IMG/VR virus record: IMGVR_UViG_3300020420_000671
Strand: one strand, 5' to 3'
DNA: 64,000 nucleotides
Source of the DNA: a virus
Taxonomy: Duplodnaviria; Caudoviricetes
The position numbers were made by a program, and so were the translations under genes. Under the pieces are notes generated by a model. The model worked only from the letters and a program-made list of their open reading frames with translations. It did no database searches and was not told the DNA's origin. The number at the start of each line of letters is the position of its first letter. The stretch's first letter is position 1. Below, in pieces: positions 6,536 through 60,104 of the stretch.

Positions 6536-9500
6536 ATGGCATCATTAATATCACCAGGTGTAAATGTTAGTGTTATAGACGAAAGTTTTTACACCCCAGC
6601 TGAACCGGGAATGACTCCTATGGTGTTTGTTGCATCTAGACAAGATAAAACAAACGCGGCAGGGACAGGCACAGCCAGTGGAACTACAAAAGCTAACGCT
6701 GGTGTACCACAACTAATTACATCACAAAGAGACTTATCTGATAAGTTCGGAGATCCAGTCTTTGAAACAGATAACAATAATAACCCTATAAACGGCGGCG
6801 AATTAAACGAATATGGTTTACAAGCGGCTTATTCTTTCTTAGGTGTAGCAAACAGAGCTTTTGTTACAAGAGCAGACATAGACCTAAATGAGATTACGCC
6901 AAGTGCTTCTGCTCCGGCGGCGGCTCCAGCAAACGGAACATTCTGGTTCGATACTGCTTTAACAAAATATGGAATTTTTGAATGGAACGGAAATGCTGTT
7001 ACTGTAACAGGCGGACAGTCATTCACTAACAAAGTTCCAACAGTAATTACATCAAAAACAAATTTAGTAGGTGAATCCAATACAGGAATACCAAAAGGTT
7101 CAGTAGGACAGGTAGGAGACTATGCTGTTGTTACAACCACTACAAGTAATAAAGTATACTACAAAAATACTGACGGTGCTTGGGTAAAAGTTGGTTCATC
7201 TGATTGGGTAAAGAGTTGGCCAACAATACAAGGATCAACTGCTAACCCAACTTTAACGAACGGACAAACAATTATTATAAACGGAAGTACTGTGTCACTT
7301 TCAGGAACATCTGTTGCTAACATGGTAACTGCTATTACTAATGCGGCAATCACAGGTGTATCTGCGAAAAGTGTAGACGGCAAACTTTATATCTACAGTG
7401 ACGGAAGTTCAACAACTGACGGTTCAACAGACGACGATGGCGCCATTTCCATTGCGGCTGGACAAACTGGTACATTGTTAGCTGACTTAGGTATCACAGC
7501 AGGAACTTACTTTGCTCCTGCGTTAGAAATTGCTCCACATACGGCTGTTCCAGCGTTCAAGACTGCAGACACAAAAACAAGACCTTCAGGTTCTGTTTGG
7601 TTTAAAACTACAGATGCTAACTTGGGTGCTAATTACAAAGTTAAAGTATACAATACTACAACAAAACTTTGGGTAGATCAATCTGCTCCAGTTTACAAAA
7701 CACACGAAGCGGCTTTATTTAATTTAGACAAATCCGGCGGTGGTATTAATCTTGCGGTAGGTGCTACATACATTCAAGCACATACAACACTAGCAGAGAA
7801 TGAAGAATTTGATTTTACAATTTTTGCTAGAAACGTATCAGGATCAACTACCATTACTTCAAATGCTATTACAGCAAGTACATTTGCGGCAGGCACATTC
7901 AATTTTACAATTGGAGAAAGTAAAGTAGGACAAGCGGCTTTAGACGCAGGTGTGGCTTTATCATTCGTAGCAACTGGTGCTACAGCAGATGCTGACTTGT
8001 TTGCTAACGCAATCAACGCACATGGATTTACTAACATACAAGCAAGTGTAGACGCAAGTAACAGACTTGTTATTTCACACAATGATGGTGGTGAAATGCG
8101 TATTAAAGATACAGACAATGCTTTCCAAAACGCAGGATTTAGTGCTTATAACTACAGCACAAAATTAGGAACAGCTAATCTTTATACAGCACCAACAGGT
8201 GATAGTGCTTTTGATTTCCATGCTTCAAATTGGAAAATCTTAACTTACAATGCTGGACCAAATGCTCCAACATCATTAACAACAGACGGCAGATTATGGT
8301 ACAGTTCAATTGTTGATGAAGTTGATATGTTGGTACACGACGGAACAACATGGAAAGGTTACGGAAACGTATACTCAAGTGCTGATCCAGAAGGACCAAT
8401 TGTAAGTGCCACAGAGCCAACACAACAATCAGATACTACACCATTAGTAACAGGAGACTTATGGATTTCAACAGCTGACTTAGAAAGCTATCCAGAAGTT
8501 TACAAATACAATGCTGATCTTCAAAAATGGTTAGCTGTAGATGAAGGTGACCAAACTACAGAAGATGGTATTTTATTTGCTGATGCTAGATTTGGTACAA
8601 CCGGTGGTACTAACGGAACAAACGGGGAAGCACCAAAAGGAACTATCAAAGAACTATTAGTAAGTGACTTCTTAGACTTTGATGCTCCAGATCCAGCACT
8701 TTATCCAAAAGGTATGTTGTTATGGAACTTACGTAGAAGCGGATTTAATGTTAAAAAATTCGTTAGAAACTATATAGACTTAACAGCTAAAAACATTAGA
8801 AAAAATGATGAGAGCATGGCTACTTATTATCCACACAGATGGGTAACTGAGTCTGCTAATCAGCCAAACGGTAAAGGTAGCTTTGGAAGAAAAGCACAGC
8901 GTAAAGTTGTAATTCAAGCGTTACAATCATTGGTAAACAGTAACCAAGAGATTAGGGACGATGAATCAAGACTATTCAACGTTATGGCTACACCAGGTTA
9001 TCCAGAACTTATAGGTGAAATGATAGCACTTAATAATGATAGAGGCTTAACAGCGTTTATTATTGGTGACTCACCATTTAGATTAAAATCAGATGGAACT
9101 ACTTTAAACAACTGGGGTAATAATACTGCTCTTGCTGTTGAAGATAACGATGACGGACTTGTTTCAAGAGATGAATACTTAGGTGTGTTTTATCCTAGCT
9201 TATTCACAAGTGACAATGCCGGAAATAACGTTGTTGTTCCACCAAGTCATGGTATAATGAGAACTTTTGCTTTAAGTGATCAAGTATCGTTTCCATGGTT
9301 TGCTCCAGCAGGTACAAGACGTGGTGGCATAACAAATGCTAGTGCGGCAGGATTTGTAGACGCTGAGGGTGAATTTAAATCAATAGCATTGAACGAAGGT
9401 CAAAGAGATACATTATATTCTTTAAATATTAATCCGATTACATTCCTTACAGGAGCAGGATTAGTTAACTTCGGTCAAAAAACTAGAGCAAGAAACGCAA

Positions 9501-9826
9501 GTGCTTTAGATAGAATCAACGTAGCACGTTTAGTAATTTACTTAAGATCACAACTTAAGAAACTAGCTAAACCATACATCTTTGAACCAAATGATAAGAT
9601 TACACGTGATGAAATCAAGGCACAAGTTGATAGTTTAATGTTAGAGCTTGTTTCACAAAGAGCATTATATGACTTCTTAGTTGTGTGTGATGAATCAAAT
9701 AACACACCATCTAGAATTGATAGAAATGAACTTTATGTAGATATTGCGATAGAACCAGTAAAAGCTGTGGAGTTTATATACATTCCATTGAGACTTAAAA
9801 ATACTGGAGAAATAGCAGGACTATAA
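6536..9826 (+). CDS. Contractile tail sheath protein (gp18-like) with large inserted domains
   Basis: SPGVNVSVIDES start, ELNEYGLQAAYSFLG, WFAPAGTRRG, LYSLNINPI, ALDRINVARL, FEPNDKITR, VVCDESNNTPSRIDRNELYVDIAIEPVKAVEFIYI. Has an AGGAG RBS. Confidence 0.95.
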   Translation: MASLISPGVNVSVIDESFYTPAEPGMTPMVFVASRQDKTNAAGTGTASGTTKANAGVPQLITSQRDLSDKFGDPVFETDNNNNPINGGELNEYGLQAAYSFLGVANRAFVTRADIDLNEITPSASAPAAAPANGTFWFDTALTKYGIFEWNGNAVTVTGGQSFTNKVPTVITSKTNLVGESNTGIPKGSVGQVGDYAVVTTTTSNKVYYKNTDGAWVKVGSSDWVKSWPTIQGSTANPTLTNGQTIIINGSTVSLSGTSVANMVTAITNAAITGVSAKSVDGKLYIYSDGSSTTDGSTDDDGAISIAAGQTGTLLADLGITAGTYFAPALEIAPHTAVPAFKTADTKTRPSGSVWFKTTDANLGANYKVKVYNTTTKLWVDQSAPVYKTHEAALFNLDKSGGGINLAVGATYIQAHTTLAENEEFDFTIFARNVSGSTTITSNAITASTFAAGTFNFTIGESKVGQAALDAGVALSFVATGATADADLFANAINAHGFTNIQASVDASNRLVISHNDGGEMRIKDTDNAFQNAGFSAYNYSTKLGTANLYTAPTGDSAFDFHASNWKILTYNAGPNAPTSLTTDGRLWYSSIVDEVDMLVHDGTTWKGYGNVYSSADPEGPIVSATEPTQQSDTTPLVTGDLWISTADLESYPEVYKYNADLQKWLAVDEGDQTTEDGILFADARFGTTGGTNGTNGEAPKGTIKELLVSDFLDFDAPDPALYPKGMLLWNLRRSGFNVKKFVRNYIDLTAKNIRKNDESMATYYPHRWVTESANQPNGKGSFGRKAQRKVVIQALQSLVNSNQEIRDDESRLFNVMATPGYPELIGEMIALNNDRGLTAFIIGDSPFRLKSDGTTLNNWGNNTALAVEDNDDGLVSRDEYLGVFYPSLFTSDNAGNNVVVPPSHGIMRTFALSDQVSFPWFAPAGTRRGGITNASAAGFVDAEGEFKSIALNEGQRDTLYSLNINPITFLTGAGLVNFGQKTRARNASALDRINVARLVIYLRSQLKKLAKPYIFEPNDKITRDEIKAQVDSLMLELVSQRALYDFLVVCDESNNTPSRIDRNELYVDIAIEPVKAVEFIYIPLRLKNTGEIAGL

Positions 9827-15680: not shown

Positions 15681-17267
15681 ATGGTTAAAAGTTTAGATGG
15701 CGTATTAACAAAAAAAGCCAACACAAGAGAAACATTTACAGAAGAGCAGATAGCTGATCTACAGGCTTGTGCTGATCCAAAAAATGGATATCTGTATTTT
15801 TGTCAAAAATTTTTTAACATTCAACATCCTGTAGCAGGTAAGATGTTGTTCGAACCATTCACATATCAACAAAAACTTTTAAACAGTTATCACGAACATA
15901 GATTTAACATTAACATGTTACCAAGGCAAAGTGGTAAGACTACAACTGCCGCCGGATATCTATTGTGGTTTGCTATGTTTCATCCTGATCAAACTATACT
16001 TATAGCGGCACACAAATACACAGGTGCCCAAGAGATCATGCAGAGGATTAGGTACGGTTATGAACTATGTCCTGACTTTATAAGAGCAGGAGTTGTCAAT
16101 TACAACAAAGGATCAATGGAGTTTGAAAATGGTAGTAGAATTGTTAGTGCTACAACTACTGGAAATACTGGTAGGGGTATGTCTATTAGTTTACTTTATT
16201 GTGACGAGTTCGCGTTCGTAAGTCCAACTATTGCTGATGAATTTTGGACTTCCATATCTCCAACACTAGCAACAGGTGGTCGTGCTATTATTACATCAAC
16301 ACCTAATTCTGATGAAGACACATTTGCTGTAATTTGGAAAGAAAGTCAAAATAAATTTGATGCTAATGGTAATGAACAAGAAGTAGGTATGAATGGTTTC
16401 CATGGATTTACCGCTAAATGGGACGAACACCCTGATAGAGATGATGAATGGCGAGAAGCAGAAATAGGCAGAATAGGCGAAGAAAGATTTAGACGAGAAT
16501 ATGGCTGTGAATTTTTAGTTTATGATGAAACGCTTATCAACAGCATAAAACTTTCTACGCTCGAGTCCATTACTCCTAAAATGAATATGGGCCAAACACG
16601 TTGGTATGAAGATATCAAATCTTCCGAAAATTATGTAGTAGCATTGGATCCTAGCATGGGTACAGGAGGTGACTTTGCGGCCATACAGGTTTTTGAAGTT
16701 CCAAGCTATAAGCAAGTTGCTGAGTGGAGACATAACGAAACTCCAATTCCCGCACAAATTAGAATACTTAAAGACATCTGTCAACATCTAAAAGATAATT
16801 GTAAAAATACTGGAACAAATATCTACTGGAGCGTTGAAAATAATGCTATAGGAGAAGCGGCACTGATAGTAATTAACGACTACGGAGAAGAAAATATACC
16901 AGGACTTTTTATCAGTGAACCAATGCGTAAAGGTCATGTACGTAAGTTTAGAAAAGGATTCAACACAACACACGGCACCAAAATTACAGCTTGTAGTAGA
17001 CTAAAAACAATGGTTGAAAATGATAAAATACAATTGAATAGTGCGGCTCTTATAACTGAGCTTAAGAATTACGTGGCAACAGGCACCAGTTTCAAAGCAA
17101 AAGTAGGACATACAGATGATCTAGTGAGTGCGACATTGTTAGCATTACGCATGATGGCTGTTTTGAAGGATTGGGATCCTAGAATATACAATTCCTTCAG
17201 TCAAGCTGAAGGTGAAGAGCCATTTGAACCCCCTATGCCTATATACGTTACAGGCGGTTTAGGATAA
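15681..17267 (+). CDS. terL: Terminase large subunit (gp17-like)
   Basis: LPRQSGKTT Walker A, LLYCDEFAFV Walker B, IITSTPN, FRREYGCEF, ALDPSMGTGGD nuclease Asp, HTDDLVSA. Confidence 0.96.
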   Translation: MVKSLDGVLTKKANTRETFTEEQIADLQACADPKNGYLYFCQKFFNIQHPVAGKMLFEPFTYQQKLLNSYHEHRFNINMLPRQSGKTTTAAGYLLWFAMFHPDQTILIAAHKYTGAQEIMQRIRYGYELCPDFIRAGVVNYNKGSMEFENGSRIVSATTTGNTGRGMSISLLYCDEFAFVSPTIADEFWTSISPTLATGGRAIITSTPNSDEDTFAVIWKESQNKFDANGNEQEVGMNGFHGFTAKWDEHPDRDDEWREAEIGRIGEERFRREYGCEFLVYDETLINSIKLSTLESITPKMNMGQTRWYEDIKSSENYVVALDPSMGTGGDFAAIQVFEVPSYKQVAEWRHNETPIPAQIRILKDICQHLKDNCKNTGTNIYWSVENNAIGEAALIVINDYGEENIPGLFISEPMRKGHVRKFRKGFNTTHGTKITACSRLKTMVENDKIQLNSAALITELKNYVATGTSFKAKVGHTDDLVSATLLALRMMAVLKDWDPRIYNSFSQAEGEEPFEPPMPIYVTGGLG

Positions 17268-34489: not shown

Positions 34490-35330
34490 TTTATGGACAG
34501 ATAACGGTGCACTTAATTCTAAACCTATTTTTACTGCCTTTGCTACTAGCCTTCACAATAACGGCCACTCTGTTCTGTATAATGATATGGCTGGGGATAT
34601 CCATGTTATTTGGAGTGTATTATGGTATGGTCGTATGGCTCCAAACAAAACTGTATGGGACGAAGCACAACGACAAGGAAAGCCAGTAATAGTATTAGAA
34701 GTAGGTGGTATCAAAAGAGGTACTACTTGGAAAGTTGGACTCAATGGTATTAATAGAGAAGCAAACTTTGGTCCAATGGGCAATGATGACTCTCGCGTTC
34801 GTAAGTTAGGACTTACGTTAAAACCTTGGAAATTTAATAATGAGTATGGTGATATAATCATAGCATGTCAACACGCACACAGCCATCAATGGAGAAATCA
34901 AAAATCCGTACAAACATGGGTGTTTGATTCTATTGACTTACTTCGACAACATACCAATAGAAAAATTATAGTAAGACCACATCCAAGAAGTCCTATTCCT
35001 GGCATTCAAAACGAATTTAAAAATGTTATATTACAAGTTCCCTCTCAGATTCCACAAACGTATGATGACTTTGACTTTGATCCTAGTAACGCTTATGCGG
35101 TAGTAAACTGGTCAAGTAATCCTGCTACGCAGGCCGTGATTCAAGGAATACCTGTTTTTGTAGGTCCAGATAGTTTAGCATTTGATGTAGGTTGTACAAA
35201 TCTTGCTAGTATCAATGGTCCTGTAATGCCAGACAGAACACAATGGTTGAATGATATTGCTTATACTGAATGGACTTTGGAAGAAATTGAGCAAGGAATT
35301 CCTTTAAAACGCTTGACATCTAGCTTATAA
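34479..35330 (+). CDS. KpsS/KpsC-like glycosyltransferase paralog 4
   Basis: IVLEVGGI, IIIACQH, IIVRPHP (HP motif), VVNWSSNPATQAVIQGIPVF, AYTEWTLEEI. Confidence 0.65.
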   Translation: MKFSLWTDNGALNSKPIFTAFATSLHNNGHSVLYNDMAGDIHVIWSVLWYGRMAPNKTVWDEAQRQGKPVIVLEVGGIKRGTTWKVGLNGINREANFGPMGNDDSRVRKLGLTLKPWKFNNEYGDIIIACQHAHSHQWRNQKSVQTWVFDSIDLLRQHTNRKIIVRPHPRSPIPGIQNEFKNVILQVPSQIPQTYDDFDFDPSNAYAVVNWSSNPATQAVIQGIPVFVGPDSLAFDVGCTNLASINGPVMPDRTQWLNDIAYTEWTLEEIEQGIPLKRLTSSL

Positions 35331-35341
35331 TCAAGTATAAT
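35313..35341 (+). promoter_or_regulatory. Sigma70-type promoter (perfect consensus)
   Basis: TTGACA, 17 bp, TATAAT. The ATG follows 6 nt later. Confidence 0.85.
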
Positions 35342-35347: not shown

Positions 35348-36589
35348 ATGAAACAAGAAAATTGTGAAGGTCTATTATCTCTTCTAACAGGTATCACTAT
35401 ACCAAGGCCTGTCATGCTGAAGGTATTGGACAACGGATATACGTTATTAGATGCGGATGCTAAAATACTTAAAAGCATAGCAAAGCAACTTTCAAAAGGA
35501 ATTCCTTTAACTAACAGACAGCATAGTTTAGTATTAGATAAACTAGAAAACTATAGAGATCAATTTATTAAAAAAGGAATTGACATTGATTTATATAAAG
35601 ATAAATTGATGTATCCATATAGGCAAATAGACAGATCACATACTTTAAAATTAGATAATGATAAATTAAAAATTAGATTTCCATTTAATAAAAAAATTAT
35701 TGATAGGATAGAAGAAGTAAGACGTGTAGATAATCGTAGTCATGAATATAGTGAAAATACACATACTTTTAAATATACACCACAAACTTTAATGAAGTTA
35801 GTTGAGATAGCAAAAAAGTTTGATCACAAATTTGAGATAGATGAAAATGTTGAAGACATATATCAACAATGTTTAAAGTTTGAGGCAACTAAAGAGGAAT
35901 ATGTACCTGGTGTATACAATTACAAAGTAAAAAATGTACCTGCCATAGTGAAAGACATGTTATTAGATGAAATAGGAGAGTGTAACAGAGATACTCTTCC
36001 GCTGTATTATGACCGTAGAGAACTTTTTGGATTGAAACATTTTGATATGGCAAAAATATCACAAAGCTATGCTAGATTATCTGTATTGACAAATAAAATA
36101 ATACAACGTAAAGATCCAACTATAGTATTACAAACAAAAACGCATACAATCGATCAGTTGGTACAATCACTTATGGAACTGAATAGGTTACCTATATTAA
36201 TTGTGTTAGATGATAAAAAAGCATTAGATCAATTGACTGTTTGTCATAATCATTTTAAAAACGTTATACATAGTTCTGAAATATCAGTTTGTTTTAGAAA
36301 ACCAAATAATGAAGATAGAGATCCTTTCAACGAAATGGTAAGTGAAAAAGGCATCAATAATCCGGTTGACAAAAATTCAAAAATAGTGTATATTAATAAT
36401 AGTAAACTGCCTAAGCCGTTGTTACAGAAAGATTTTTCTCCTAGAGCTATTGTTAGTTTAGGAGGCCACATAATTGGCTTTAACAATGTAACAAACTTTA
36501 TACAACAGTTTGATCTTCAAATAGTATATGAAGATAACAGCTCATCAGTTTACTGGAACAAAAGATTAAGGAAGATAGTAAATGCCTAG
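35348..36589 (+). CDS. Hypothetical protein upstream of the UvsW helicase
   Basis: 413-aa ORF with its own promoter, overlapping the uvsW start. Confidence 0.65.
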   Translation: MKQENCEGLLSLLTGITIPRPVMLKVLDNGYTLLDADAKILKSIAKQLSKGIPLTNRQHSLVLDKLENYRDQFIKKGIDIDLYKDKLMYPYRQIDRSHTLKLDNDKLKIRFPFNKKIIDRIEEVRRVDNRSHEYSENTHTFKYTPQTLMKLVEIAKKFDHKFEIDENVEDIYQQCLKFEATKEEYVPGVYNYKVKNVPAIVKDMLLDEIGECNRDTLPLYYDRRELFGLKHFDMAKISQSYARLSVLTNKIIQRKDPTIVLQTKTHTIDQLVQSLMELNRLPILIVLDDKKALDQLTVCHNHFKNVIHSSEISVCFRKPNNEDRDPFNEMVSEKGINNPVDKNSKIVYINNSKLPKPLLQKDFSPRAIVSLGGHIIGFNNVTNFIQQFDLQIVYEDNSSSVYWNKRLRKIVNA

Positions 36590-38039
36590 TTGTAGGTTAA
36601 TTATACAAGATGAAGTTAACATCAAAATAGATGGACTGCCTGTTGATGTAAGAAGAAAGATATCAAACGCACTAAAGTTTGAAGTGCCATATGCTAGATA
36701 TATGCCACAATATAAACTAGGACGTTGGGACGGAAAAGTTGGCTTCTTTGGTCTTGGTGGTTCTGGTTACGTTAATCATCTTGATACAATCAATAGTGTT
36801 CTCCATAAATGTGGAGTACAAATAGATGAGATAGAAGATCAAAGACAAAAAATAAAATTAGATTTTCAAGCTATAAATGAAAACTTTTGGGCACATAAAA
36901 CTTGGCCGAAAGGACATCCTGCTGAAGGAGAAAAAATTATATTAAGAGATTATCAATTAGAAGTTGTTAATAACTTCTTAGCAAATCCGCAGTCGTTACA
37001 AGAAGTTGCCACAGGAGCAGGGAAAACAATTATTACTGCTACGTTAAGTAAACTCACAGAAGATTATGGACGCAGTCTTGTGATTGTTCCTAATAAATCC
37101 TTAGTAACACAAACAGAAGAAGATTATGTAAACTGTGGATTAGATGTTGGTGTATACTTTGGGGATAGAAAAGAGCTTGGTAAAACACACACAATCTGTA
37201 CTTGGCAAAGTCTAAACATATTAGATAAGAAAACTAAAGATGGTGAAGCAGTATTAACATTAGCAGAGTTTTTGGAAGGTGTATCAACAGTTATAGTAGA
37301 TGAAGTACATCAAGCAAAGGCAGAAGTTTTAAAAAACTTATTGACACGCAACTTAAGAAATGCTCCAATACGTTGGGGACTTACTGGTACAATACCAAAA
37401 GAGAAATTTGAGTTTGAAGCTATACACGCAGGCCTTGGTCCCGTCATAGGACAGATAAGTGCTAAAGAATTACAAGACAAAGGTGTGCTGAGTGAATGTC
37501 ACGTGAACATTGTACAATTGATTGACACTCCGGTACATTCTAACTATCAAGAAGAATTAAAATATCTTGTGACAAATGATCCAAGAATAGATTACTTAGG
37601 CAAATTACTTAATAAAATCAAAGCATCAGGCAATACATTAATACTTGTTGACAGAATATCAGCAGGAGAAAAATTACAAAAATCCATACCCGGTTCACAG
37701 TTTGTGAAAGGCGATGTAAAATTAAAAGACAGAAAGGAAGCATATGATGAAATCAATGAAGGTACTAATCATGTTGTTATTGCGACATATGGTGTGGCCG
37801 CCGTTGGTATTAACATTCCTCGTATTTTTAATCTTGTTCTCATTGAACCTGGAAAGAGCTTTGTGAGAGTAATACAATCAATAGGCAGAGGCGTAAGAAA
37901 GGCGAAAGATAAAGACTTCGTACAGATATGGGATCTTACATCAACTTGTAAGTTCGCGAAGCGGCACCTTACTCAAAGAAAAAAGTTTTATAAGGAGGCG
38001 CAGTACCCATTTACAATAGAAAAAGTAGAATGGAACTAG
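36582..38039 (+). CDS. uvsW: SF2 helicase UvsW-like
   Basis: LRDYQ, ATGAGKT, VDEVH, GLTGT, GINIP, QSIGRGVR. Confidence 0.92.
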   Translation: MPSCRLIIQDEVNIKIDGLPVDVRRKISNALKFEVPYARYMPQYKLGRWDGKVGFFGLGGSGYVNHLDTINSVLHKCGVQIDEIEDQRQKIKLDFQAINENFWAHKTWPKGHPAEGEKIILRDYQLEVVNNFLANPQSLQEVATGAGKTIITATLSKLTEDYGRSLVIVPNKSLVTQTEEDYVNCGLDVGVYFGDRKELGKTHTICTWQSLNILDKKTKDGEAVLTLAEFLEGVSTVIVDEVHQAKAEVLKNLLTRNLRNAPIRWGLTGTIPKEKFEFEAIHAGLGPVIGQISAKELQDKGVLSECHVNIVQLIDTPVHSNYQEELKYLVTNDPRIDYLGKLLNKIKASGNTLILVDRISAGEKLQKSIPGSQFVKGDVKLKDRKEAYDEINEGTNHVVIATYGVAAVGINIPRIFNLVLIEPGKSFVRVIQSIGRGVRKAKDKDFVQIWDLTSTCKFAKRHLTQRKKFYKEAQYPFTIEKVEWN

Positions 38040-38040
38040 A

Positions 38041-38547
38041 ATGAAAATACTTACGTTAGAAAATAAACCTCTAGATCTAAACACGCTACCGGATCAAATA
38101 GAAGAGGATATAAGATTTAGTATATTAGATAATTCAGATTCAAACAATCCTGATTTCTTTTATGTGCCTTTAATCTTTTTGGAATCTTTTAGTTCACCTA
38201 GTTGTGTTTTAGATATAGGAGGTTTTGAAGTCCAAATGCCTATAGATTGGCATATAGCAGTTGGATGTCCGGATAGCGGAAATGATATAGAAATATTGCC
38301 ATTGACCAGCATAGGAGATAGAGGATTTGAAGCGTTCATTTTCAATCCACTGACCAGCTTCAAACCAGACTTTACTCCTGTAAAGGTAATTAATTATTAT
38401 AATGATGTTAAATGGTACTTTCCAAAAGTAAGAAACGCACAACTTTTAAGTATACCAGTTGAAGAAAAAAATGAACCAATGTGTGCTTTCTTTATTAAGG
38501 ACATTACTAGACAAACAGAAGTTATCAAATACGGAGAATTGTTTTAA
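38041..38547 (+). CDS. Hypothetical protein
   Basis: Full ORF packed between uvsW and the cupin gene. Confidence 0.6.
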   Translation: MKILTLENKPLDLNTLPDQIEEDIRFSILDNSDSNNPDFFYVPLIFLESFSSPSCVLDIGGFEVQMPIDWHIAVGCPDSGNDIEILPLTSIGDRGFEAFIFNPLTSFKPDFTPVKVINYYNDVKWYFPKVRNAQLLSIPVEEKNEPMCAFFIKDITRQTEVIKYGELF

Positions 38548-38903
38548 TGAAAGCAGGAAAAATTTGGGGACAGACAGAGCTGATACACGCTAATGGTGTT
38601 TTAGAATTCCATAGAATAGAATTTAAGAAAGGTTTCAAGTGTTCTGAGCACGAACACAAATTCAAATGGAACGGTTTCTTTGTTGAGTCTGGCAAGATGA
38701 TTGTCAGAGTTTGGCAAGATGATCAAGAAGGTTTGGTTGATGAAACTATTTTAAACGCAGGAGATTTTACACAAGTCAAACCCGGAAAGATACATCAGTT
38801 TGAAGGCATTGAAGATGGTGTAGCTTTTGAACTATACTGGGCCGAATTCAATCATGATGATATCGTAAGACGCACAGTTGGAACCAAGGTCAAAAATGGA
38901 TGA
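38547..38903 (+). CDS. Cupin-domain protein
   Basis: CSEHEHKFKWNGFFVESG and VKPGKIHQFEG (cupin motifs 1 and 2). Confidence 0.8.
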   Translation: MKAGKIWGQTELIHANGVLEFHRIEFKKGFKCSEHEHKFKWNGFFVESGKMIVRVWQDDQEGLVDETILNAGDFTQVKPGKIHQFEGIEDGVAFELYWAEFNHDDIVRRTVGTKVKNG

Positions 38904-39160
38904 CCAAACTTATACCAGGACAAGCTCTAATATACGAAAGAGCCAATGGTGTAACGTATGCTCGATATAGAGATCCTCCTCACAACATGATTGAACGATG
39001 GATCGTCGGCGGCGAACCTAAAGCAGTAGCAGAAGCAATGGGTATCATTGATTATGATGAATGGAAAGATATAATGATGACATCTGAAAAAAATGCTACC
39101 CTTAGAAAACTTATTGACAAAGTAAGAACCACATACTACATTTTAAAAGAACCAAAATAA
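38900..39160 (+). CDS. Hypothetical protein
   Basis: ATGA-coupled ORF. Confidence 0.6.
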   Translation: MTKLIPGQALIYERANGVTYARYRDPPHNMIERWIVGGEPKAVAEAMGIIDYDEWKDIMMTSEKNATLRKLIDKVRTTYYILKEPK

Positions 39161-39175
39161 AACAGAAGGAAGAGT

Positions 39176-40462
39176 ATGGCTGATAAAGATTACAAACCAG
39201 TTAAGACAAATAAAGTAGGCGGATCTCCATTTACAGGAGTGCTAGGTTGGGTAGACGATCGACTGCCAATATTTCGTATGTTCAAATATGAATATTTAGA
39301 TTTCCAAGTGCCTAGAAGTTTAAATTACTTTTGGAGTTTTGGAGGCATCCTAATGTTCTGTTTACTAGGACTTATAATCACAGGACTTACATTAGGAATG
39401 CATTACAAGCCTGATGCTGAAAAAGCCTTTTTAAGTGTAGAACATATAATGAGAGATGTAAATTTTGGATGGTTACTGAGATATCTACATATGAATCTTG
39501 CTTCATTCTTTTTCATCGCAGTTTATCTACACATATTTAGAGCAATGTATTTTGGTTCATATAAAGATCCACGGCAAGTGATGTGGCTTATAGGGATCAC
39601 CATATTCTTCTTAATGATGGCCACTGCTTTCTTAGGATATACATTACCTTGGGGGCAAATGAGCTTATGGGGAGCAACAGTAATCACAAGTTTATTCGGA
39701 GCAATACCTCTTGTAGGAGAAACTATTGTCACTTGGTTATGGGGAGGATATGCGGTTGACGATCCAACTATTAATCGATTCTACGTATTACATTGGTTAA
39801 TTGCTTTTATAATTTTAGGTGTTGTAGTATTACATGTTATAGCATTACACATTGTTGGATCTAATAATCCATCAGGTATAGAGCCAAAAGATACTAGAGA
39901 CACAGTATCATTCCATCCATACACAACTGCTAAAGATATGTTTGGCATGGCAGTATTTTTTACAATCTTTGCTATGTTTGTTTTCTTTGTTCCTAACATA
40001 CTAGGACATCCAGACAATTATATTCCTGCCAATCCAATGCAGACACCTGCTCATATTGTTCCTGAATGGTACTTCTTACCTTTCTATGCTATATTAAGAG
40101 CTATCCCTGACAAACTAGGCGGCGTGATTGCTATGGTTAGTGCTATTGGAATACTTGCTTTGTTGCCTTGGTTAGATAGAAGTAAAGTAAGAAGTTGTAT
40201 ATTTAGACCTTTACATCGACAATGGTTTATCTTATTTGTTTTAAATTTTATGATGTTAACTTGGGTTGGTGCTATGCCAGCCGAAGGATATTACATAACT
40301 CTTGGAAGAATCGGAACAGCATATTGGTTCCTATATTTCCTTGTAATAGTGCCGTTGAATAGTGTCCTTGAAAAACCTAAACCTATGCCTAATTCGATCC
40401 ATGAATATTTAGATTGGAAAAAACAAGGCAAAATTAAATCAGTATTTTCATGGATGAAATAA
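39176..40462 (+). CDS. petB: Cytochrome b of the bc1 complex (full length)
   Basis: All four heme His are present (LHMN...LHIF; LHWL...LHVI), with [14 protein letters not shown], the Qo motif [15 protein letters not shown], and DKLGGV. Confidence 0.97.
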
Positions 40463-40638
40463 TGGAGGAAGATTATCCTGACACAATAATATATGTAGAT
40501 TCAGAAAGAGTTTGGTGTATGGGAGAAGACATGGATCACCCTAAAGTTTATTATACTGTACCTGAAGAAGGTTTTGTAGTTTGTGGCTATTGTGATATAA
40601 AATTTATGCGAAAGAAAAAGGAAGATGATAATGAATAA
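40462..40638 (+). CDS. zf-CHCC zinc-finger protein (NDUFS6-like)
   Basis: VWCMGEDMDHPKVYY...VVCGYCDIKF (C-H-C-C). TAATG-coupled to petB. Confidence 0.8.
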   Translation: MEEDYPDTIIYVDSERVWCMGEDMDHPKVYYTVPEEGFVVCGYCDIKFMRKKKEDDNE

Positions 40639-40861
40639 GCCTAACACAACTTTTAAATTATCAATAAGAGATGTAGAAGTAATAGAACAAGCTCTTAGAA
40701 ACAAAGCAGGAAGAAGAGGCATGGCTATAGCACAGGGAGATACATCACCAGAACTGAAAGCTGAGATGTATGAGATCCAAGATGTGCTTGGTAGAATACA
40801 TGAACAGAAAAATTTTTATGCCAAATTCAAAGACGGCAAAACTCCTTATGTGAGCGGATAA
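40625..40861 (+). CDS. Hypothetical protein
   Basis: Coupled ORF ending at the kdsA start. Confidence 0.6.
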   Translation: MIMNKPNTTFKLSIRDVEVIEQALRNKAGRRGMAIAQGDTSPELKAEMYEIQDVLGRIHEQKNFYAKFKDGKTPYVSG

Positions 40862-41640
40862 TGAGAATTATAGCAGGACCTTGTCAACACGAAAGTATTT
40901 TAGAATCATTTGAGATAGCATCTCATTGTAGAAGGATTTGTAAAGATTTAGGATTTGATTACTATTTTAAAGCAAGTTTTGACAAAGCAAATAGAAGCAG
41001 TAAGGACGGTATACGCGGAATAGGTTTTGATAAGACAATGAAGGACTTTTACCTTATCAAAGAAAAACACGGTAACACTCTTAAAATACTTACGGATGTT
41101 CATACAGTAGAACAAGTAGAATCTATTAACAAAAACCACAGTGATGTAATAGACGTTTTACAGATACCTGCCTTCTTATGTAGGCAAACAGATTTAGTAC
41201 AGGCGGCTTGTGCTACTGGTAAAATAGTAAATATTAAGAAAGGACAATTTCTTGCTCCTTGGGACATCAAAGGCATCTTGTCTAAAACAGACGGTGCTAA
41301 AGAAGTTTGGATAACTGAAAGGGGAACTAGCTTTGGATACAATACACTTGTTGTTGACTTTACCGGTCTTGACTATATGCTTAACAATTACGATAATGAT
41401 ATTATTTTTGATGTTACACACTCGGTTCAAAAACCAGGTGGTTTGGGTGGATCATCTGGCGGAAACAGAGAATACGTTCCCGGACTTGCTAGAGCAGGAT
41501 CGGCACTAGGAATCAAAAACTTCTTCTTAGAAGTACATCGTGATCCAGACAATGCTCCTAGTGATGGACCAAACATGTTACACTTAAAAGATTTCGAAAG
41601 GACGATAAATGAAATCAAAAGCTATTCTTATACCGGCTAG
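40861..41640 (+). CDS. kdsA: KDO8P synthase
   Basis: IAGPC, KASFDKANRSS, QIPAFLCRQTDL, KKGQFLAPWD, ERGTSFGYNTLVVD, DVTHSVQKPGG, EVHRDPDNAPSDG. Confidence 0.97.
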   Translation: MRIIAGPCQHESILESFEIASHCRRICKDLGFDYYFKASFDKANRSSKDGIRGIGFDKTMKDFYLIKEKHGNTLKILTDVHTVEQVESINKNHSDVIDVLQIPAFLCRQTDLVQAACATGKIVNIKKGQFLAPWDIKGILSKTDGAKEVWITERGTSFGYNTLVVDFTGLDYMLNNYDNDIIFDVTHSVQKPGGLGGSSGGNREYVPGLARAGSALGIKNFFLEVHRDPDNAPSDGPNMLHLKDFERTINEIKSYSYTG

Positions 41641-42301
41641 GTTACACAGCACAAGGTATACTAATAAAATGCTTGTTGAATTAGATGGCAAGCCAATGAT
41701 TAAACGTGTGTATGATGCTTGTATGTCAACAGGTTATGATACATTTGTAATCACGGATAGCATGGAAATATTTTCTTTGTTTAATTCTGAAAATTGTTGG
41801 ATAGAAGAAAAGCCATATGAGAATGGAACGGCAAGATGTGCCGGAGCTATTTCAAATAGGTTTTTCAAAGCATATAATACTTTTATAAATGTACAAGGTG
41901 ACATGCCAGATGTTACACCTGAAATGATTAATCAATGTGTAGAATGGTTAAAATATTATTCAGTAAGTACAGTCTACACAACAATGCGGAAAGAAGAACA
42001 AGACAGACCAGAAAGCGTCAAAATGGTACGTGCTGGTGACAAGGCTCTTTGGTTTGGTAGAGGCATGACTGGTTATGGTGATTGGCATCTGGGTGTGTAT
42101 GGATATAGACGAGATGCTTTAGAAATGTATCCAAACTTAGAGATCCCAATTGAAGAAGATGTTGAGAAACTAGAACAACTACGTTGGTTAAAGAATGGCT
42201 GGGATATTGGTTGTTCACATGTTGAATTCAACGGAACCGAAATCAATACAAAAGAAGATATACACGAATGGAATTACAAGAATGGATTACTAAATGGTTG
42301 A
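41609..42301 (+). CDS. kdsB: CMP-Kdo synthetase
   Basis: IPARLHSTR, K...GKPMI, INVQGDMP, HLGVYGYR, EKLEQLRWL. Confidence 0.93.
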   Translation: MKSKAILIPARLHSTRYTNKMLVELDGKPMIKRVYDACMSTGYDTFVITDSMEIFSLFNSENCWIEEKPYENGTARCAGAISNRFFKAYNTFINVQGDMPDVTPEMINQCVEWLKYYSVSTVYTTMRKEEQDRPESVKMVRAGDKALWFGRGMTGYGDWHLGVYGYRRDALEMYPNLEIPIEEDVEKLEQLRWLKNGWDIGCSHVEFNGTEINTKEDIHEWNYKNGLLNG

Positions 42302-42326
42302 CATTGAGCCGTATATGTATTATAAT
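42298..42326 (+). promoter_or_regulatory. Sigma70-type promoter (perfect consensus)
   Basis: TTGACA, 17 bp, TATAAT. The ATG follows 5 nt later. Confidence 0.85.
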
Positions 42327-42331: not shown

Positions 42332-42787
42332 ATGAGTAAATTACCATTAAAAGACATACTTGCGGCAATTGATATGGGAGCCAAAGAAGTTTGGGACGAA
42401 CTATCTGATGATGAACGCAAACAAGTAAGTTTTTATCTTTTGAACAGATATGTAAGTTCACAAAAAGGTAATAGAGATAAACAAGAATTAGCAGTATTCA
42501 AAACAAATGAATACTACAACAAAAACTTTTTTAATTTACAAAAACATAAAAAATTATTATGGCAACTTATTTGTATGTCTGGTAACACAAAAAACATACA
42601 GTATCATGAGTGGATAGGATACAAAAAGAAAAACGGATCCAACAGTAAAAATGTAAAGTTTTTAGAAAAGTTATTTCCTAATATGAAAAAAGATGAGGTT
42701 GAGTTACTTGCTAGAATATCTACAAAAAAAGAACTGTTTGCCCTTGGAGAAGCATACGGAATGGATAAGAAAAGTGTCGGTATCTAA
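42332..42787 (+). CDS. Clamp-loader small subunit-like (T4 gp62-like)
   Basis: LKDILAAID, FYLLNRYVS, size and replication context. Confidence 0.55.
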   Translation: MSKLPLKDILAAIDMGAKEVWDELSDDERKQVSFYLLNRYVSSQKGNRDKQELAVFKTNEYYNKNFFNLQKHKKLLWQLICMSGNTKNIQYHEWIGYKKKNGSNSKNVKFLEKLFPNMKKDEVELLARISTKKELFALGEAYGMDKKSVGI

Positions 42788-43460
42788 ACCATACAAGTGT
42801 GAATACTGTGGTGCTAGTTTTACTAGAGAAAAAACACTATCAGTTCATATGTGTGAAAAGAAACGTAGACACTTACAAAAAAATGAAAAGCATGTACAGT
42901 TAGGCTATTATGGATTTACAAGATTCTATAGATTAAGTGCTGGTACAAAAAATGAAAAAACATATGAACAATTTTGTGACAGTCCATATTACAATGCTTT
43001 CGTAAAATTTGGTAGTTGGCTAAACAATGTAAAGCCCTTGTACATGGAAAAGTATATTGACTGGGTAGTGACATCAGGAGTAAAACTAGATCATTGGTGT
43101 AGAGACGAACTATATGAAAAATACGTTAATGAATTTGTATTGAAAGAAAGTATGGAAACAGCAGTAGAAAGAACTATAGACACAATGATGAATTGGGGAG
43201 AAGAAAAGGAAGCTCCATGGAATGATTATTTCCGACATGCTACATTAAACAGAGTGACCAGAGATATCAAGGATGGAAAGATAAGTCCATGGCTTATGCT
43301 TAACTGTTCATCCGGCAAACAGATGCTATCTCAATTCAATGATGAACAACTTGAATTTGTGTATACTGTTGTTGACCCAAAACATTGGGCTATGAAATTT
43401 AGAAAGAAACAAGCAGACGTAGAGATTGTAAAAGAAGTTGCCAAGGAATCAAAATTATGA
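42774..43460 (+). CDS. Hypothetical protein with N-terminal C2H2-like Zn finger
   Basis: YKCEYCGASFTREKTLSVHMC. Probable GTG start at 42774. Confidence 0.6.
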   Translation: MSVSKPYKCEYCGASFTREKTLSVHMCEKKRRHLQKNEKHVQLGYYGFTRFYRLSAGTKNEKTYEQFCDSPYYNAFVKFGSWLNNVKPLYMEKYIDWVVTSGVKLDHWCRDELYEKYVNEFVLKESMETAVERTIDTMMNWGEEKEAPWNDYFRHATLNRVTRDIKDGKISPWLMLNCSSGKQMLSQFNDEQLEFVYTVVDPKHWAMKFRKKQADVEIVKEVAKESKL

Positions 43461-56967: not shown

Positions 56968-57441
56968 ATGAGCAAAAATTTATTTTACTTGATAGTATTC
57001 GTGTCTACTATCGCCTTGAGTAGAATAATACCACACCCACCCAATTTTACACCAATACTAGCAGTGGCAGTAATGGCTCCAATGATTACTGGAGCAACAT
57101 TGTCAGGCATAGCAATAGCATTAGGTTCAATGATGTTAAGTGATTTATATTTTGGTTGGCATAGTACATTAGGGGTGGTATACATGTCCATAGCATTGTG
57201 TAGTTTCATACCAAGGTACATCAACAACGCATACCTAGCAGGATCAATTGCTAGTGTATTGTTTTTTGTGATTACCAACTTTGCTGTATGGCTTACAGGA
57301 TATTATGGATTAACTTGGCAAGGACTTATAGCATGTTACGTAGCGGCTATACCGTTCTTTGCTAACACACTAACAGGCACATTATTTTACACTTTGATTA
57401 TAAAATCAGTAGTTACGATACAAAGGAGGATTTATGCGTAA
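56968..57441 (+). CDS. DUF6580-like integral membrane protein (proposed ECF-type vitamin transporter S-component)
   Basis: SRIIPHPPNFTPI, MMLSDLYFG, LFFVITNFAVW, CYVAAIPFFANTLTG; 157 aa and strongly hydrophobic. Confidence 0.7.
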   Translation: MSKNLFYLIVFVSTIALSRIIPHPPNFTPILAVAVMAPMITGATLSGIAIALGSMMLSDLYFGWHSTLGVVYMSIALCSFIPRYINNAYLAGSIASVLFFVITNFAVWLTGYYGLTWQGLIACYVAAIPFFANTLTGTLFYTLIIKSVVTIQRRIYA

Positions 57442-59227
57442 ACTATTTTTTATATTCCTATTTTTAGGAATGGCATATTCAAACGTGGCTTCAGCAATGA
57501 TGGAGATTACTATCTACCTAACACGTAGTAACACGGATCAAGCATCAGCTACAACCACATATGACTATGTAGACAAGTACACATTGGAAGTTCAAAATAC
57601 CCAAGACTTTATACAAGCAGTCAATGGTGTTACAGGACTAAACATGGTACAAAGCGGACCCACAGGACAAAACGTTAGTTTGTTTATGCGAGGTGGTGAC
57701 AGTAACCACACGTTGGTAACAATGAACGGATTACCTATCAAGGACGCTTCGACTACAAACGGACTACACGACTTTGGTCAAGACTTCATGTCCAGCATCA
57801 GTGCTATTGAAATTATTAAAAATCCAAGTGGTGCTATGGTAGGACCAAATTCAATAGGCGGAGTTGTTAACTTTATCACAGGTGAGTTTTATGAAAACTC
57901 AATAACATTCAAAGCAGGATCAAACAACACAAAAGGTATGGAACTGCGGGTACACAACCAAACCAAGAACGGCACACAGTTGTTCATTACAGCAAGTGGT
58001 ACAGACAGTGATGGTATCAGTGTTAAGGAAGGAACTGAAGACGATGGATATTCTGTACGTAACTTCAGCATAGGTTCCTACACTAGATTGGAAGACGGTT
58101 ATATCAAAACCAATATACTACACAAGGACAATGACAGTGACCTTGACGGAACTTCCGATGACCCAGACTATACTGCCAACAACAAGAACAACGTGTATCA
58201 AATCATTGCCAAGAAGAACAACGAATTGGGACATGCGGATCTAGCAATTGGTTACACAACATACGATAGAACATACACCAATGGTAGTGAGATAGATGAG
58301 TATGACAGTAACAGTACCAACGTGATGTTAAGCCAGACCATTGTAAAGGACAACATAGACTTTGTTCCAGGTATAGAATACGAAAGCCAAGAAGCCAAGT
58401 TCAACAACAGAGGATCATACACAAGTTCGGTTGATGCCAATCATTGGAACACGGCTTATTTCTTAAACTCTAATTGGCGAACATCAGACAAGTCAATGAT
58501 CAGTTCAGGTGTTAGATTGGATCACTTGGAAGACTATGATGATTACTACACATACAAGTTAGGAGCATACTACTACTTGACAGAAGATCTCAAACTGAGA
58601 ACAAACTGGTCAAACTCTGTGCGTACTCCTACACTATATGAAAAGTATGGTGCTGATAACTTTGGTTACTCGGGTAACCCGACACTGGGAGTTGAAAAGG
58701 GTGAAACACTGGATCTAGGATTTACCTATGGTGCTTTTGATGTGGTTTACTATACAACGGATATCAATGATGCTATTACCTATGGCAACTCAACATACTC
58801 AAACGTTTCAGGTACAAGTGAACGCAAAGGAGTTGAAGCAAACTATAATTATGTGTTCAATGAAGAATGGCAACACAACATTGGTGGTCATTGGAACATA
58901 GCAGAAGACTCATCAGGTACACAGTTGTTGCGTAGACCTAAGTGGACATTTAACCAGAGCTTTGTGAAACAGGAACTTACAGGCAAGTTTACAACCACAG
59001 TGACTCACAGCTACACTGGTGAACATGTTGATCTAGATGCCAGTACCTATGCTCGTAAGGACATGCCCGGAGTACATCTGTTTGATCTACATCATTCAAT
59101 AAACTTCAGTGCGGACACATCAATAACTGCTAGTTTAATGAACGTTACTGATGAGAATTACGAAAGACCAGACGGCTATAACCAAAACGGTAGAACTTGG
59201 TTAATCAGCTACAAAAAGAAATTCTAA
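57434..59227 (+). CDS. TonB-dependent outer-membrane receptor, BtuB-like
   Basis: Signal peptide, TonB-box-like EITIY, plug motif QSGPTGQNVSLFMRGGDSNHTLVTMNG, IEIIKNP, RTPTLYEKY, LLRRPK, NVTDENYE, and C-terminal Phe; 597 aa. Confidence 0.88.
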   Translation: MRKLFFIFLFLGMAYSNVASAMMEITIYLTRSNTDQASATTTYDYVDKYTLEVQNTQDFIQAVNGVTGLNMVQSGPTGQNVSLFMRGGDSNHTLVTMNGLPIKDASTTNGLHDFGQDFMSSISAIEIIKNPSGAMVGPNSIGGVVNFITGEFYENSITFKAGSNNTKGMELRVHNQTKNGTQLFITASGTDSDGISVKEGTEDDGYSVRNFSIGSYTRLEDGYIKTNILHKDNDSDLDGTSDDPDYTANNKNNVYQIIAKKNNELGHADLAIGYTTYDRTYTNGSEIDEYDSNSTNVMLSQTIVKDNIDFVPGIEYESQEAKFNNRGSYTSSVDANHWNTAYFLNSNWRTSDKSMISSGVRLDHLEDYDDYYTYKLGAYYYLTEDLKLRTNWSNSVRTPTLYEKYGADNFGYSGNPTLGVEKGETLDLGFTYGAFDVVYYTTDINDAITYGNSTYSNVSGTSERKGVEANYNYVFNEEWQHNIGGHWNIAEDSSGTQLLRRPKWTFNQSFVKQELTGKFTTTVTHSYTGEHVDLDASTYARKDMPGVHLFDLHHSINFSADTSITASLMNVTDENYERPDGYNQNGRTWLISYKKKF

Positions 59228-59388: not shown

Positions 59389-59574
59389 TTATGGAGACTG
59401 TTCAGTGCCTTCTGCTATACAGGTAAAGCTCTCGCCCAGCACTCTGTTTTCCCATTCGTATACCACTGCTTCCCAGCAGTTCTGTTGATCGTAGAAATAG
59501 TCTATTGCTTCGCCTTGTACTTCGCCAGCGGCTGTGATCCAAACGGCTACAAGTATGTAACCGAACTCTATCAA
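59389..59574 (-). CDS. Small hypothetical protein
   Basis: ATGA-coupled to the heme oxygenase; hydrophobic N-terminus with two Cys. Confidence 0.5.
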   Translation of the reverse strand: MIEFGYILVAVWITAAGEVQGEAIDYFYDQQNCWEAVVYEWENRVLGESFTCIAEGTEQSP

Positions 59575-60104
59575 CTGTCCAATTCCTCGAACAGTTTCAT
59601 TGCGTATTCAAAACACACGTTGGCTTCTGGTGCCATGCCATCATGTAGCTTGGCTCTCACGTCTTCAATGATCTGCTTGGCATTGTCAAAGTCATACATC
59701 TTGCCTGACCCTGGTGCTCGTTTCTTGATCATCTGACCACCGTGTAGCTCACCAAAGTGCCTCACGTATAGATGTGCCAATATGCCGTCATCGTCCAAGC
59801 CTTCAACGTAGTCCGTGTACTCATGTACCACTGGACACAGTTCTGTCGTGCCTCTGTCAAAGCCATGCTCCTGTTCAAGCTCTGTGAGATCCTCCACCAT
59901 GCCTGGCACACGGCAGATGCCTTCTATGCCTTTCAGCAGTCCTCGTTCACGTGCTTGGTCTTCAAGTGCGCCATACTGTACGCATTGGTTGTATATGAAT
60001 CTGTGATATTCTTCTGGTTCCATGCCCTTGAGTAGCTTACGAGCATGTGTCATGCGTTCAGCCTTCTTGTGGTTTTCCCAGGTAAGTTCTTTAAGTTTGC
60101 TCAT
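59571..60104 (-). CDS. Heme oxygenase (biliverdin-producing, HO1-like)
   Basis: LKELTWENHKKAE (proximal His), AHLYVRHFGELHGGQMI (distal helix), EANVCF. Confidence 0.85.
   Translation of the reverse strand: MSKLKELTWENHKKAERMTHARKLLKGMEPEEYHRFIYNQCVQYGALEDQARERGLLKGIEGICRVPGMVEDLTELEQEHGFDRGTTELCPVVHEYTDYVEGLDDDGILAHLYVRHFGELHGGQMIKKRAPGSGKMYDFDNAKQIIEDVRAKLHDGMAPEANVCFEYAMKLFEELDS

Follow-up and report, generated by a model that had tools for sequence, protein, structure and literature searches.

A lone bc1-type cytochrome b gene in marine jumbo phages: a candidate respiratory auxiliary metabolic gene

Introduction

Why would a phage carry the gene for one core subunit of the respiratory bc1 complex and none for its partner subunits? 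The question is raised by a stretch of 64,000 nucleotides from the IMG/VR virus record IMGVR_UViG_3300020420_000671 (Duplodnaviria; Caudoviricetes), hereafter called the window, in which a petB gene for cytochrome b is followed directly by a gene for a zf-CHCC protein. Cyanophages carry psbA and psbD, which encode core subunits of photosystem II, as auxiliary metabolic genes, and photosystem and electron-carrier genes are well known in them. Auxiliary metabolic genes in phages of the dominant ocean heterotrophs mostly concern nutrients and nucleotides. A preliminary description of the window, made from the sequence alone, drew a parallel with psbA and proposed that the phage re-supplies or retunes the bc1 core subunit of a heterotrophic host. 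The analysis reported here leads us to favour, with some reservation, the view that this is an auxiliary metabolic gene: a host-derived cytochrome b kept by marine jumbo myoviruses, whose product would enter the host bc1 complex and sustain respiration.

Results

The window encodes a complete bc1-type cytochrome b

Comparison of the 428-amino acid open reading frame (ORF) with Pfam identified the Cytochrome_B family (PF00033, residues 42-226, 9e-69) and the Cytochrom_B_C family (PF00032, residues 284-385, 7e-44). Its best solved relatives, in a full-length alignment (phmmer 1.5e-142), were the bc1 cytochromes b of Paracoccus denitrificans (PDB 9fks, 2yiu) and Rhodobacter capsulatus/sphaeroides (1zrt, 2qjy), which have the family, the fused eight-helix architecture and the residues described below in common with the phage protein. 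The ligands of hemes bL and bH, H105 and H119 in helix B and H206 and H220 in helix D, aligned with those of all cellular sequences. The Qo site was represented by the PEWY motif (residues 296-299) and the cd-helix motif WGATVIT (W165-T171), both invariant across all viral clades, and the alignments also revealed the Qi residues H225, S229, K253 and D254. Heme, Qo and Qi residues were kept in every viral clade. The protein has every sequence feature expected of the bc1 type; the petABC/fbcFBC operon context is missing. Two short motifs deviate from the usual pattern: HMNLAS (residues 105-110), with L108 replacing the usual Gly, and LHWLIAF (residues 205-211), with A210 replacing the usual Pro. 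Pfam and the alignments bore out the preliminary description's account of a full-length petB with heme ligands, PEWY and Qi residues, and both of the deviations that it had singled out were found in the sequence.

The same description had noted that the window is devoid of genes for the Rieske protein and cytochrome c1. Indeed, a tblastn search of the window with a SAR11 Rieske and a SAR11 c1 protein gave no significant match. Homologues of the two were found at none of the 75 IMG/VR cytochrome b loci analysed (up to 8 kb of flank each) and were absent from four long related contigs of 81-172 kb. In a SAR11-type cell, petA, petB and petC lie in tandem, and cytochrome b is adjacent to c1 in all 135 Pelagibacter genomes examined (bioRxiv 10.64898/2026.04.03.716430). 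The phage copy thus differs from alphaproteobacterial PetB/FbcB in being phage-encoded and in having neither petA (Rieske) nor petC (c1) beside it, two neighbours that are universal in cells. Two loci from other assemblies, P0040 and P0099, also have a lone cytochrome b, with phage-like neighbours (T5-type dNMPase, Mtd_N, DnaK, GrpE). On the 69-kb ENA contig with P0040 (L194:1-11275), the lone cytochrome b is 79% identical to that of the window and lies among genes for GrpE, an IMPDH/GMP-reductase-like protein, PsiE and a T5-type dNMPase, a phage context unlike that of the window.

The gene is a discrete cassette in a phage genome

Contig L215 was found to be collinear with the window on both sides of the gene: window positions 36003-39161 correspond to L215 841-3999 at 94% identity, and positions 40471-41262 to L215 4001-4786 at 90%. 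Between these segments L215 lacks exactly window 39162-40470 and has nothing in its place. The left edge of the indel is the stop codon of orf86, a conserved phage gene. L215, which is devoid of cytochrome b, and L001, which carries it, originate from one source metagenome. The exact gap in L215 indicates that cytochrome b is a discrete cassette, equipped with its own ribosome-binding site and present or absent among very close relatives. The ribosome-binding region, AGAAGGAAGAGT, precedes the ATG codon in L003 as well, and nucleotide homology to L002 and L003 begins at 39164.

These comparisons bear on the possibility that the gene is passenger DNA or an artefact, arising by recent transduction of host DNA, by chimeric assembly or by the mistaking of a cellular contig for a viral one. 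Some features of the data set invite such a suspicion, since IMG/VR contains some short records, L067 bears a provirus label and a GenBank "phage" match in Helicobacter is probably a prophage edge. Against this, hallmark phage genes lie on both sides of cytochrome b within the window, and the same junctions occur in independent contigs: L001, which was assembled from another metagenome, runs collinear with the window through both of them (37932-41632, 91% nucleotide identity). Copies of the window clade come from at least six metagenomes; those of L002 and L003 are 92-93% identical in amino acid sequence to that of the window. The cassette borders are precise to the nucleotide and include the ribosome-binding site. 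Moreover, the clade's allele occurs in none of 401 Pelagibacterales genomes, and synonymous divergence from every cellular copy is saturated, with the ratio of nonsynonymous to synonymous substitution rates (dN/dS) still no higher than 0.09 (see below). Both the GC content of the gene (0.354) and its GC3 fit the phage. An origin as passenger DNA or artefact therefore appears extremely improbable. Independent assemblies reproduce a host-derived gene with phage genes on both flanks, so that the chimeric assembly envisaged by the preliminary description was not found and the viral origin that it expected synteny to confirm was upheld by L001.

A second indel in this part of the genome distinguishes window 41633-42280 from L001 (L001:3701). 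Here the kdsB-like gene is gone in L001, with kdsA and the downstream genes kept (92%). The region from uvsW to primase is a hot spot of cargo gain and loss.

Cytochrome b alleles track the host and are under purifying selection

One scan of IMG/VR identified at least 75 loci with relatives of the window cytochrome b; uncultured phages of marine and fresh waters account for dozens of contigs with a lone cytochrome b. Phylogenetic analysis was carried out on 64 rows with IQ-TREE (LG+C20+F+G4) and on the full 143-row set with FastTree. The window clade was monophyletic (100/100) and sister (95/93) to Fonsibacter-type SAR11. Another viral clade (99/98) was sister to SAR116 cells (100/98), and the viral copy L025 fell within the HIMB59 clade (100/100). 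The remaining viral copies formed two all-viral clades (100/97, 100/95), apart from the long-branched L063. Viral cytochromes b were accordingly found at three or more separate positions in the tree, next to SAR116, within HIMB59 and next to Fonsibacter-type SAR11. The L063 copy (L063:31-1698) is very divergent, with 54% identity to the window's and a branch length of 1.0, and has an insertion after PEWY/AILRA, at an alignment column in which the Caulobacterales sequence L122 is extended too.

The phages bearing these different types are related in other genes. DnaB and polymerase of L025/L026 and of L017/L018 are 58-66% identical to those of the window, and TerL of the L030 contig, with a cytochrome b of the SAR116 type, is 61% identical. 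Shared backbone genes despite different cytochrome b types indicate that related phages carry host-matched alleles, and we read these relationships as evidence that cytochrome b was acquired repeatedly and that the allele tracks the host. A further group of contigs (L011, L016, L075, L059 and L067) has T4-like clamp loader, gp32, ribonucleotide reductase and tail fibre genes in the flanks. Searches of these contigs for the window DnaB and sheath returned no close match (one 25% DnaB match, in L059, and none for the sheath); they are myoviruses of uncertain kinship to the window's lineage.

The preliminary description had expected the petB phylogeny to predict the host. The tree gave no clean prediction: only 13 of the 401 Pelagibacterales genomes carry a Fonsibacter-type petB, at 73-77% identity to the window's, and no genome of the set has a closer one. 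In all data sampled, the window clade is known from phage-sized contigs alone.

Pairwise dN/dS within the window clade ranged from 0.025 to 0.09 at dS 0.5-2; examples are the window against L001 (0.025, dS 0.68) and L002 against L003 (0.038, dS 0.54). Comparable values were obtained for the SAR116-like viral clade (median 0.049) and for Fonsibacter cells (0.050). The agreement indicates that the phage copies are as constrained as an essential cellular gene, in place of the relaxed selection that had been considered as an alternative. Synonymous sites were saturated between phage and cell, so that the gene is no recent pick-up.

A partial cytochrome b was also noticed on a contig labelled as a giant-virus metagenome-assembled genome (L071:8004-8762, IMGVR_UViG_GVMAG-S-1091232-121_000001). 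It aligns with residues 161-400 at 54% identity; it may be a contaminant of mitochondrial or bacterial origin, or a virus may have acquired it independently.

The deviant motifs belong to a petB type shared by phages and cells

The two unusual motifs had been taken as signs of retuning by the phage. This part of the proposal did not survive the comparison with cells, since cellular sequences deviate likewise: the motifs read HMNFAS and LHWL[LI]AF in Fonsibacter cells and HANLVS and LHWLLAF in HIMB59. The usual forms, H(A/M)NGAS and LH(Y/F)L(L/I)PF, occur in marine Pelagibacter, SAR116 and other alphaproteobacteria. The presence of the motifs in cellular Fonsibacter and HIMB59 identifies them as traits of a divergent petB type common to cells and phages.

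Retuning could also have come about through other residues. In such a scenario the phage allele would displace the host subunit and change the bc1 complex, for example by lowering superoxide release, conferring resistance to natural Qo/Qi inhibitors or altering quinone handling. Fixed differences between viral copies and their cellular sisters numbered 30, 17 and 26 in three pairs. The roughly 30 that set the window clade apart from its Fonsibacter-type sisters include Y164L, beside the cd1 helix, and, past the bH histidine, G123A/L124M/Y126F; the HIMB59-like viral copy has L124M and G366A as well. However, only 2-3 positions were shared per pair (L124M, G366A, S197A), about what chance predicts for 17-30 changes in 420 sites, so that the search for convergent phage-specific substitutions over the three pairs revealed overlap at chance level. 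The SAR116-like and HIMB59-like viral copies are, moreover, very near the host alleles, the catalytic residues are unchanged and both motifs were inherited from the cellular type. We regard retuning as unlikely.

In the tree of Rieske and c1 sequences, Fonsibacter was nested in Pelagibacter (99/97) and HIMB59 stood apart; Fonsibacter and Pelagibacter are 64-69% identical in Rieske and 59-66% in c1. Cytochrome b of Fonsibacter is 56-62% identical to that of Pelagibacter, no nearer than to other alphaproteobacteria, and reaches 66-67% with HIMB59 (at most 67% with any cell) and 68-75% with the phage clades. Fonsibacter PetB grouped with HIMB59 and four viral clades at 100/100, and a tree limited to cells also united Fonsibacter and HIMB59 (100/100). 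The approximately unbiased test rejected a Fonsibacter-Pelagibacter PetB clade (difference in log-likelihood 65, p = 3e-8), the groups in this test having been named after the tree was seen and both lineages being long-stemmed. The sharing of derived motifs argues against long-branch attraction alone.

Together, these data suggest that petB was replaced within the operon in Fonsibacter, possibly via phages. Either petB moved between cell lineages and into phages, or an allele maintained by phages replaced the cellular gene. Tentatively, and with more doubt than confidence, one might go further and propose that the divergent type (Leu, Phe or Met for Gly in H-x-N-G-A-S; Trp and Ala for Tyr and Pro in LHYLLPF) was maintained and diversified in marine jumbo phages and replaced the native petB inside petABC in at least two lineages, Fonsibacter-type SAR11 and HIMB59. 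The phages would then not be mere recipients.

The zf-CHCC gene is a phage backbone gene that recombines with cytochrome b

The TAA stop codon of cytochrome b (40460-40462) overlaps the ATG of the zf-CHCC gene at 40462, the TAATG coupling reported in the preliminary description. The ORF listing chooses an earlier in-frame ATG at 40450 for the latter gene; homology with the start of the L215 protein (MNEYPET...) favours 40462. The product matched PF10276 (1.5e-11, 44.6 bits against a cut-off of 27), with invariant zinc ligands (C23, H30, C45 and C48). When phage and host copies were combined into a profile, it recovered chain R of Paracoccus complex I (8qby_R, a 62-amino acid zf-CHCC chain, 5.5e-13) together with many mitochondrial NDUFS6 chains. 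The Pfam match and the four ligands, in common with NDUFS6/NUMM/PdNUMM (PDB 8qby chain R), identify the predicted protein as a homologue of the complex I accessory subunit NDUFS6, or PdNUMM in Paracoccus. Phage copies differ from those of hosts in the spacing of the first two ligands (C-x6-H as opposed to C-x8-H) and form a separate group. Four host-type genomes (Fonsibacter, Pelagibacteraceae, HIMB59 and Pelagibacterales) contain one zf-CHCC copy each, which in the Fonsibacter genome lies on a different contig from petB.

In phages the gene is widespread, being present at no fewer than 120 IMG/VR loci, and cytochrome b lies within 4 kb of it in 4 of the best 80. The closest relatives of the window (L215, L217, L209, L214 and L216) have orf86 and then zf-CHCC directly, without cytochrome b, and L207 offers an L003-type context that is likewise devoid of cytochrome b. 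We conclude that zf-CHCC is a phage backbone gene, usually without cytochrome b. A tblastn search for it in the deposited phages of INPHARED gave no match.

In the window's own sub-lineage the two genes do travel together. The block common to the window and L002/L003 is exactly 39164-40615, spanning the ribosome-binding site, cytochrome b and zf-CHCC at 83% identity; the backbones around it differ in arrangement and are just 67-69% identical. Along the alignment of the window with L215, identity drops to 0.78-0.82 solely across zf-CHCC and returns to 0.96-0.98 past 40700, a dip that we take as the footprint of a recombination tract spanning cytochrome b and zf-CHCC. Furthermore, cytochrome b is followed at a short distance by zf-CHCC in L063 and L014 too, which represent two unrelated cytochrome b lineages. 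Because of the common block, the identity dip and these additional juxtapositions, we read cytochrome b and zf-CHCC as a two-gene cassette in the window's sub-lineage and a looser, recurrent association elsewhere. The coupling postulated earlier therefore holds as one recombining cassette in this sub-lineage, and fails as a general rule for a gene that mostly occurs without cytochrome b. In L063, about 150 nucleotides separate cytochrome b from the zf-CHCC gene, whose product is 66% identical to that of the window.

Cytochrome b lies in a promoter-bracketed run of genes

Two perfect matches to the sigma-70 consensus, one preceding the other with no such match between them, enclose a series of genes that overlap or follow one another closely (Table 1), in the order orf413, uvsW-like, orf168, cupin, orf86, cytochrome b, zf-CHCC, orf78, kdsA and kdsB. 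Both matches resemble early phage promoters of the kind recognised by the host polymerase. A search for terminator-like sites between the genes of this run found none. The part comprising orf78 and the KdsA-like and KdsB-like genes is syntenic in L001, L215 and L217. The upstream promoter is probably the start of the unit containing cytochrome b, and since the promoter scan places a perfect host-type promoter at its head, early transcription by the host polymerase is suggested.

Two marine RNA libraries, from two studies, contained one exact-match contig piece each inside the gene (39971-40216 and 39668-39825), a weak hint of transcription. The RNA runs yielded small sequence shares only, derived mostly from conserved parts of other organisms' cytochrome b, and left the flanks uncovered; they provide no measure of expression level or habitat.

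The surrounding genome is that of a jumbo phage

In addition to the tail sheath, TerL and UvsW-like genes, the window encodes a tail tube, UvsX, primase, a DnaB-type helicase and a polymerase (Pfam and annotation). Nearly all of these genes lie on the + strand, GC content is about 35% and no tRNA genes were found in the window. TerL is nearest to those of jumbo phages, namely Pseudomonas PA5oct (54%, 287 kb), Sinorhizobium Phosso (48%, 469 kb) and Erwinia phages (44%, 355 kb), and CheckV estimates the completeness of related IMG/VR contigs of 131-172 kb at just 38-47%. Because of this TerL kinship and the low completeness of already long relatives, the element is identified as a jumbo phage, a large myovirus.

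A heme oxygenase homologue (PF01126, 2e-13) is encoded at 59571-60104 (-), just past a TonB-dependent receptor gene (57434-59227, +). The occurrence of heme oxygenase and a diheme cytochrome b in one phage suggests heme and iron handling as a theme. Five related viral contigs gave no match to hemE (PF01208) or heme oxygenase (PF01126), the records being less than 50% complete and so uninformative either way. In the final 6 kb of the window GC content rises to 0.43-0.48 and genes lie on the minus strand. Elsewhere, positions 42693-43460 encode a 255-amino acid protein with a weak C2H2 zinc-finger match (E ~2e-4, under the Pfam cut-off) and 60-97% identity to proteins of related phage contigs.

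Table 1. Features of the cytochrome b locus and its surroundings in the window, and cellular loci used for comparison.
Feature	Position	Strand	Evidence or remark
Cytochrome b (petB), bc1 type, 428 amino acids, N- and C-terminal domains fused	39176-40462	+	Pfam, alignments, dN/dS, tree
orf86, conserved phage gene without Pfam match; left border of cassette	38900-39160	+	95-98% identical in L001, L215, L217
1309-bp segment: ribosome-binding site, cytochrome b and first zf-CHCC codons	39162-40470	+	In window and L001, not in L215
Ribosome-binding region	39164-39175	+	Left end of block common to L002/L003
TAATG stop/start overlap, cytochrome b/zf-CHCC	40460-40464	+	Kept in L001, L002, L003
zf-CHCC protein, 58 amino acids (ATG 40462) or 62 amino acids (ATG 40450)	40462-40638	+	PF10276
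orf78, KdsA-like (40861-41640) and KdsB-like (41609-42301) genes	40625-42301	+	DAHP_synth_1 1.9e-50; CTP_transf_3 2.6e-22
Perfect sigma-70-type promoter (TTGACA, 17 nucleotides, TATAAT), 12/12 consensus	35313-35341	+	7 nucleotides upstream of ORF 35348
Second perfect 12/12 sigma-70 consensus promoter, directly upstream of gene start	42298-42326		Next perfect match
Tail sheath	6536-9826		Window gene
TerL (large terminase)	15681-17267		Window gene
UvsW-like helicase	36582-38039		Window gene
Fonsibacter-type petABC	L076:5468-8095; also L164, L165, L080		Considered together with HIMB59 loci L081-L083

Discussion

A possible course of events during infection

Taken together, the data are compatible with the following course of events. 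The unit would be transcribed early from its host-type promoter, with uvsW and the 3-deoxy-D-manno-octulosonate (Kdo) genes. Phage cytochrome b would insert into the host inner membrane, take up two hemes and assemble with the host Rieske protein and cytochrome c1 into a working bc1 complex. The complex would thereby keep up or raise quinol oxidation and the proton-motive force in a long and costly infection, once host gene expression declines. In this scheme, when the gene is expressed, how its product joins the host subunits and what the phage gains are inferred. Action within bc1 is suggested by the full conservation of Qo, Qi and heme residues, which are relevant only in a working complex, and by the tracking of the host by the allele, as needed to fit host partners. 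That a hybrid complex may function is indicated by Fonsibacter cells, which run a divergent petB with Pelagibacter-like PetA and PetC.

A different role can be envisaged in which cytochrome b acts alone or with phage partners, for instance by reacting with quinol as a diheme membrane protein and so dissipating or redirecting electrons, by serving as a heme sink, or by acting in the membrane in superinfection exclusion or the timing of lysis. Such a role would suit a gene encoded without Rieske or c1 alongside, in a phage that also has a heme oxygenase gene, and with a patchy presence among close relatives like that of many exclusion genes. It would leave unexplained why PEWY, the cd helices and the Qi residues, relevant only to catalysis with a Rieske head and quinone, are invariant in all viral clades, why dN/dS equals that of essential cellular copies and why the allele tracks the host lineage, as if fitting host partner subunits. 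A function outside bc1 thus seems quite improbable.

Several points nevertheless weigh against a cytochrome b that sustains host respiration through bc1. The matches in RNA libraries are short, contig-derived and possibly carry-over DNA. The gene is dispensable, as L215, 94% identical in the flanks, does without it. For new bc1 complexes, Rieske and c1 would be required too, and neither comes from the phage; cytochrome b, moreover, is not known to be a limiting or damage-prone subunit in bacteria. Finally, the nearest cellular petB is just 73-77% identical, and a jumbo phage in very small SAR11-type cells is itself hypothetical.

The zf-CHCC partner hints at a broader role in keeping the respiratory chain running, if its homology to a complex I subunit is any guide; the proposed action of cytochrome b does not require it. 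As to why cytochrome b alone should limit respiration, one speculation is that the heme-bearing core is turned over through oxidative or light damage.

Relation to known phage genes

The gene looks like an auxiliary metabolic gene that encodes one core subunit of an energy-converting complex, in respiration instead of photosynthesis. Like psbA and psbD of cyanophages, it is a single host-derived core subunit of a membrane complex of this kind, found without the rest, under purifying selection, acquired repeatedly and tracking the host. It differs from them in that cytochrome b is respiratory and the hosts are heterotrophs, in that the rapid damage turnover which provides the rationale for psbA is not known for cytochrome b, and in that some close relatives have the phage gene and others lack it. 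The psbA analogy of the preliminary description may thus be retained for re-supply, which fits a lone, selected and repeatedly acquired phage petB, and dropped for retuning, the motifs being cellular as well.

Among the 50,697 deposited phage genomes of INPHARED, tblastn with cytochrome b gave a single match, of 38% identity, at the edge of a Helicobacter prophage record; no deposited phage genome carries this gene. In the literature searched, we found no prior report of a lone phage bc1-type cytochrome b, although coverage was incomplete and an earlier description is possible. Cytochromes are not mentioned in a pelagimyophage paper (PMC7029224) or in a paper on marine jumbo phages (PMC9123017). 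The sole mention of bc1 in a phage that we found concerns the temperate Nitrosospira phage genome "roc1", which carries a complete bc1 operon (bioRxiv 10.64898/2026.05.02.722434). There, as here, bc1 genes are annotated within a phage genome; that element is temperate, with all three subunits and many host-like genes, whereas the present loci have cytochrome b alone, on virulent-type jumbo myovirus backbones and in dozens of contigs.

Implications

If a phage-encoded cytochrome b does enter host bc1, the principle that a phage keeps the power plant of its host running would extend to respiration, at complex III, and cytochrome b would stand out as the component of bc1 that is limiting or vulnerable in oligotrophic bacteria. 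The alleles could also serve as host-linked markers with which to trace jumbo phages of SAR11-like, HIMB59 and SAR116 bacteria. Exchange of such alleles between host and phage has been described for psbA. The conflict in Fonsibacter between the petB tree and that of petA and petC raises the prospect that phage alleles may likewise feed back into the respiratory chains of cells.

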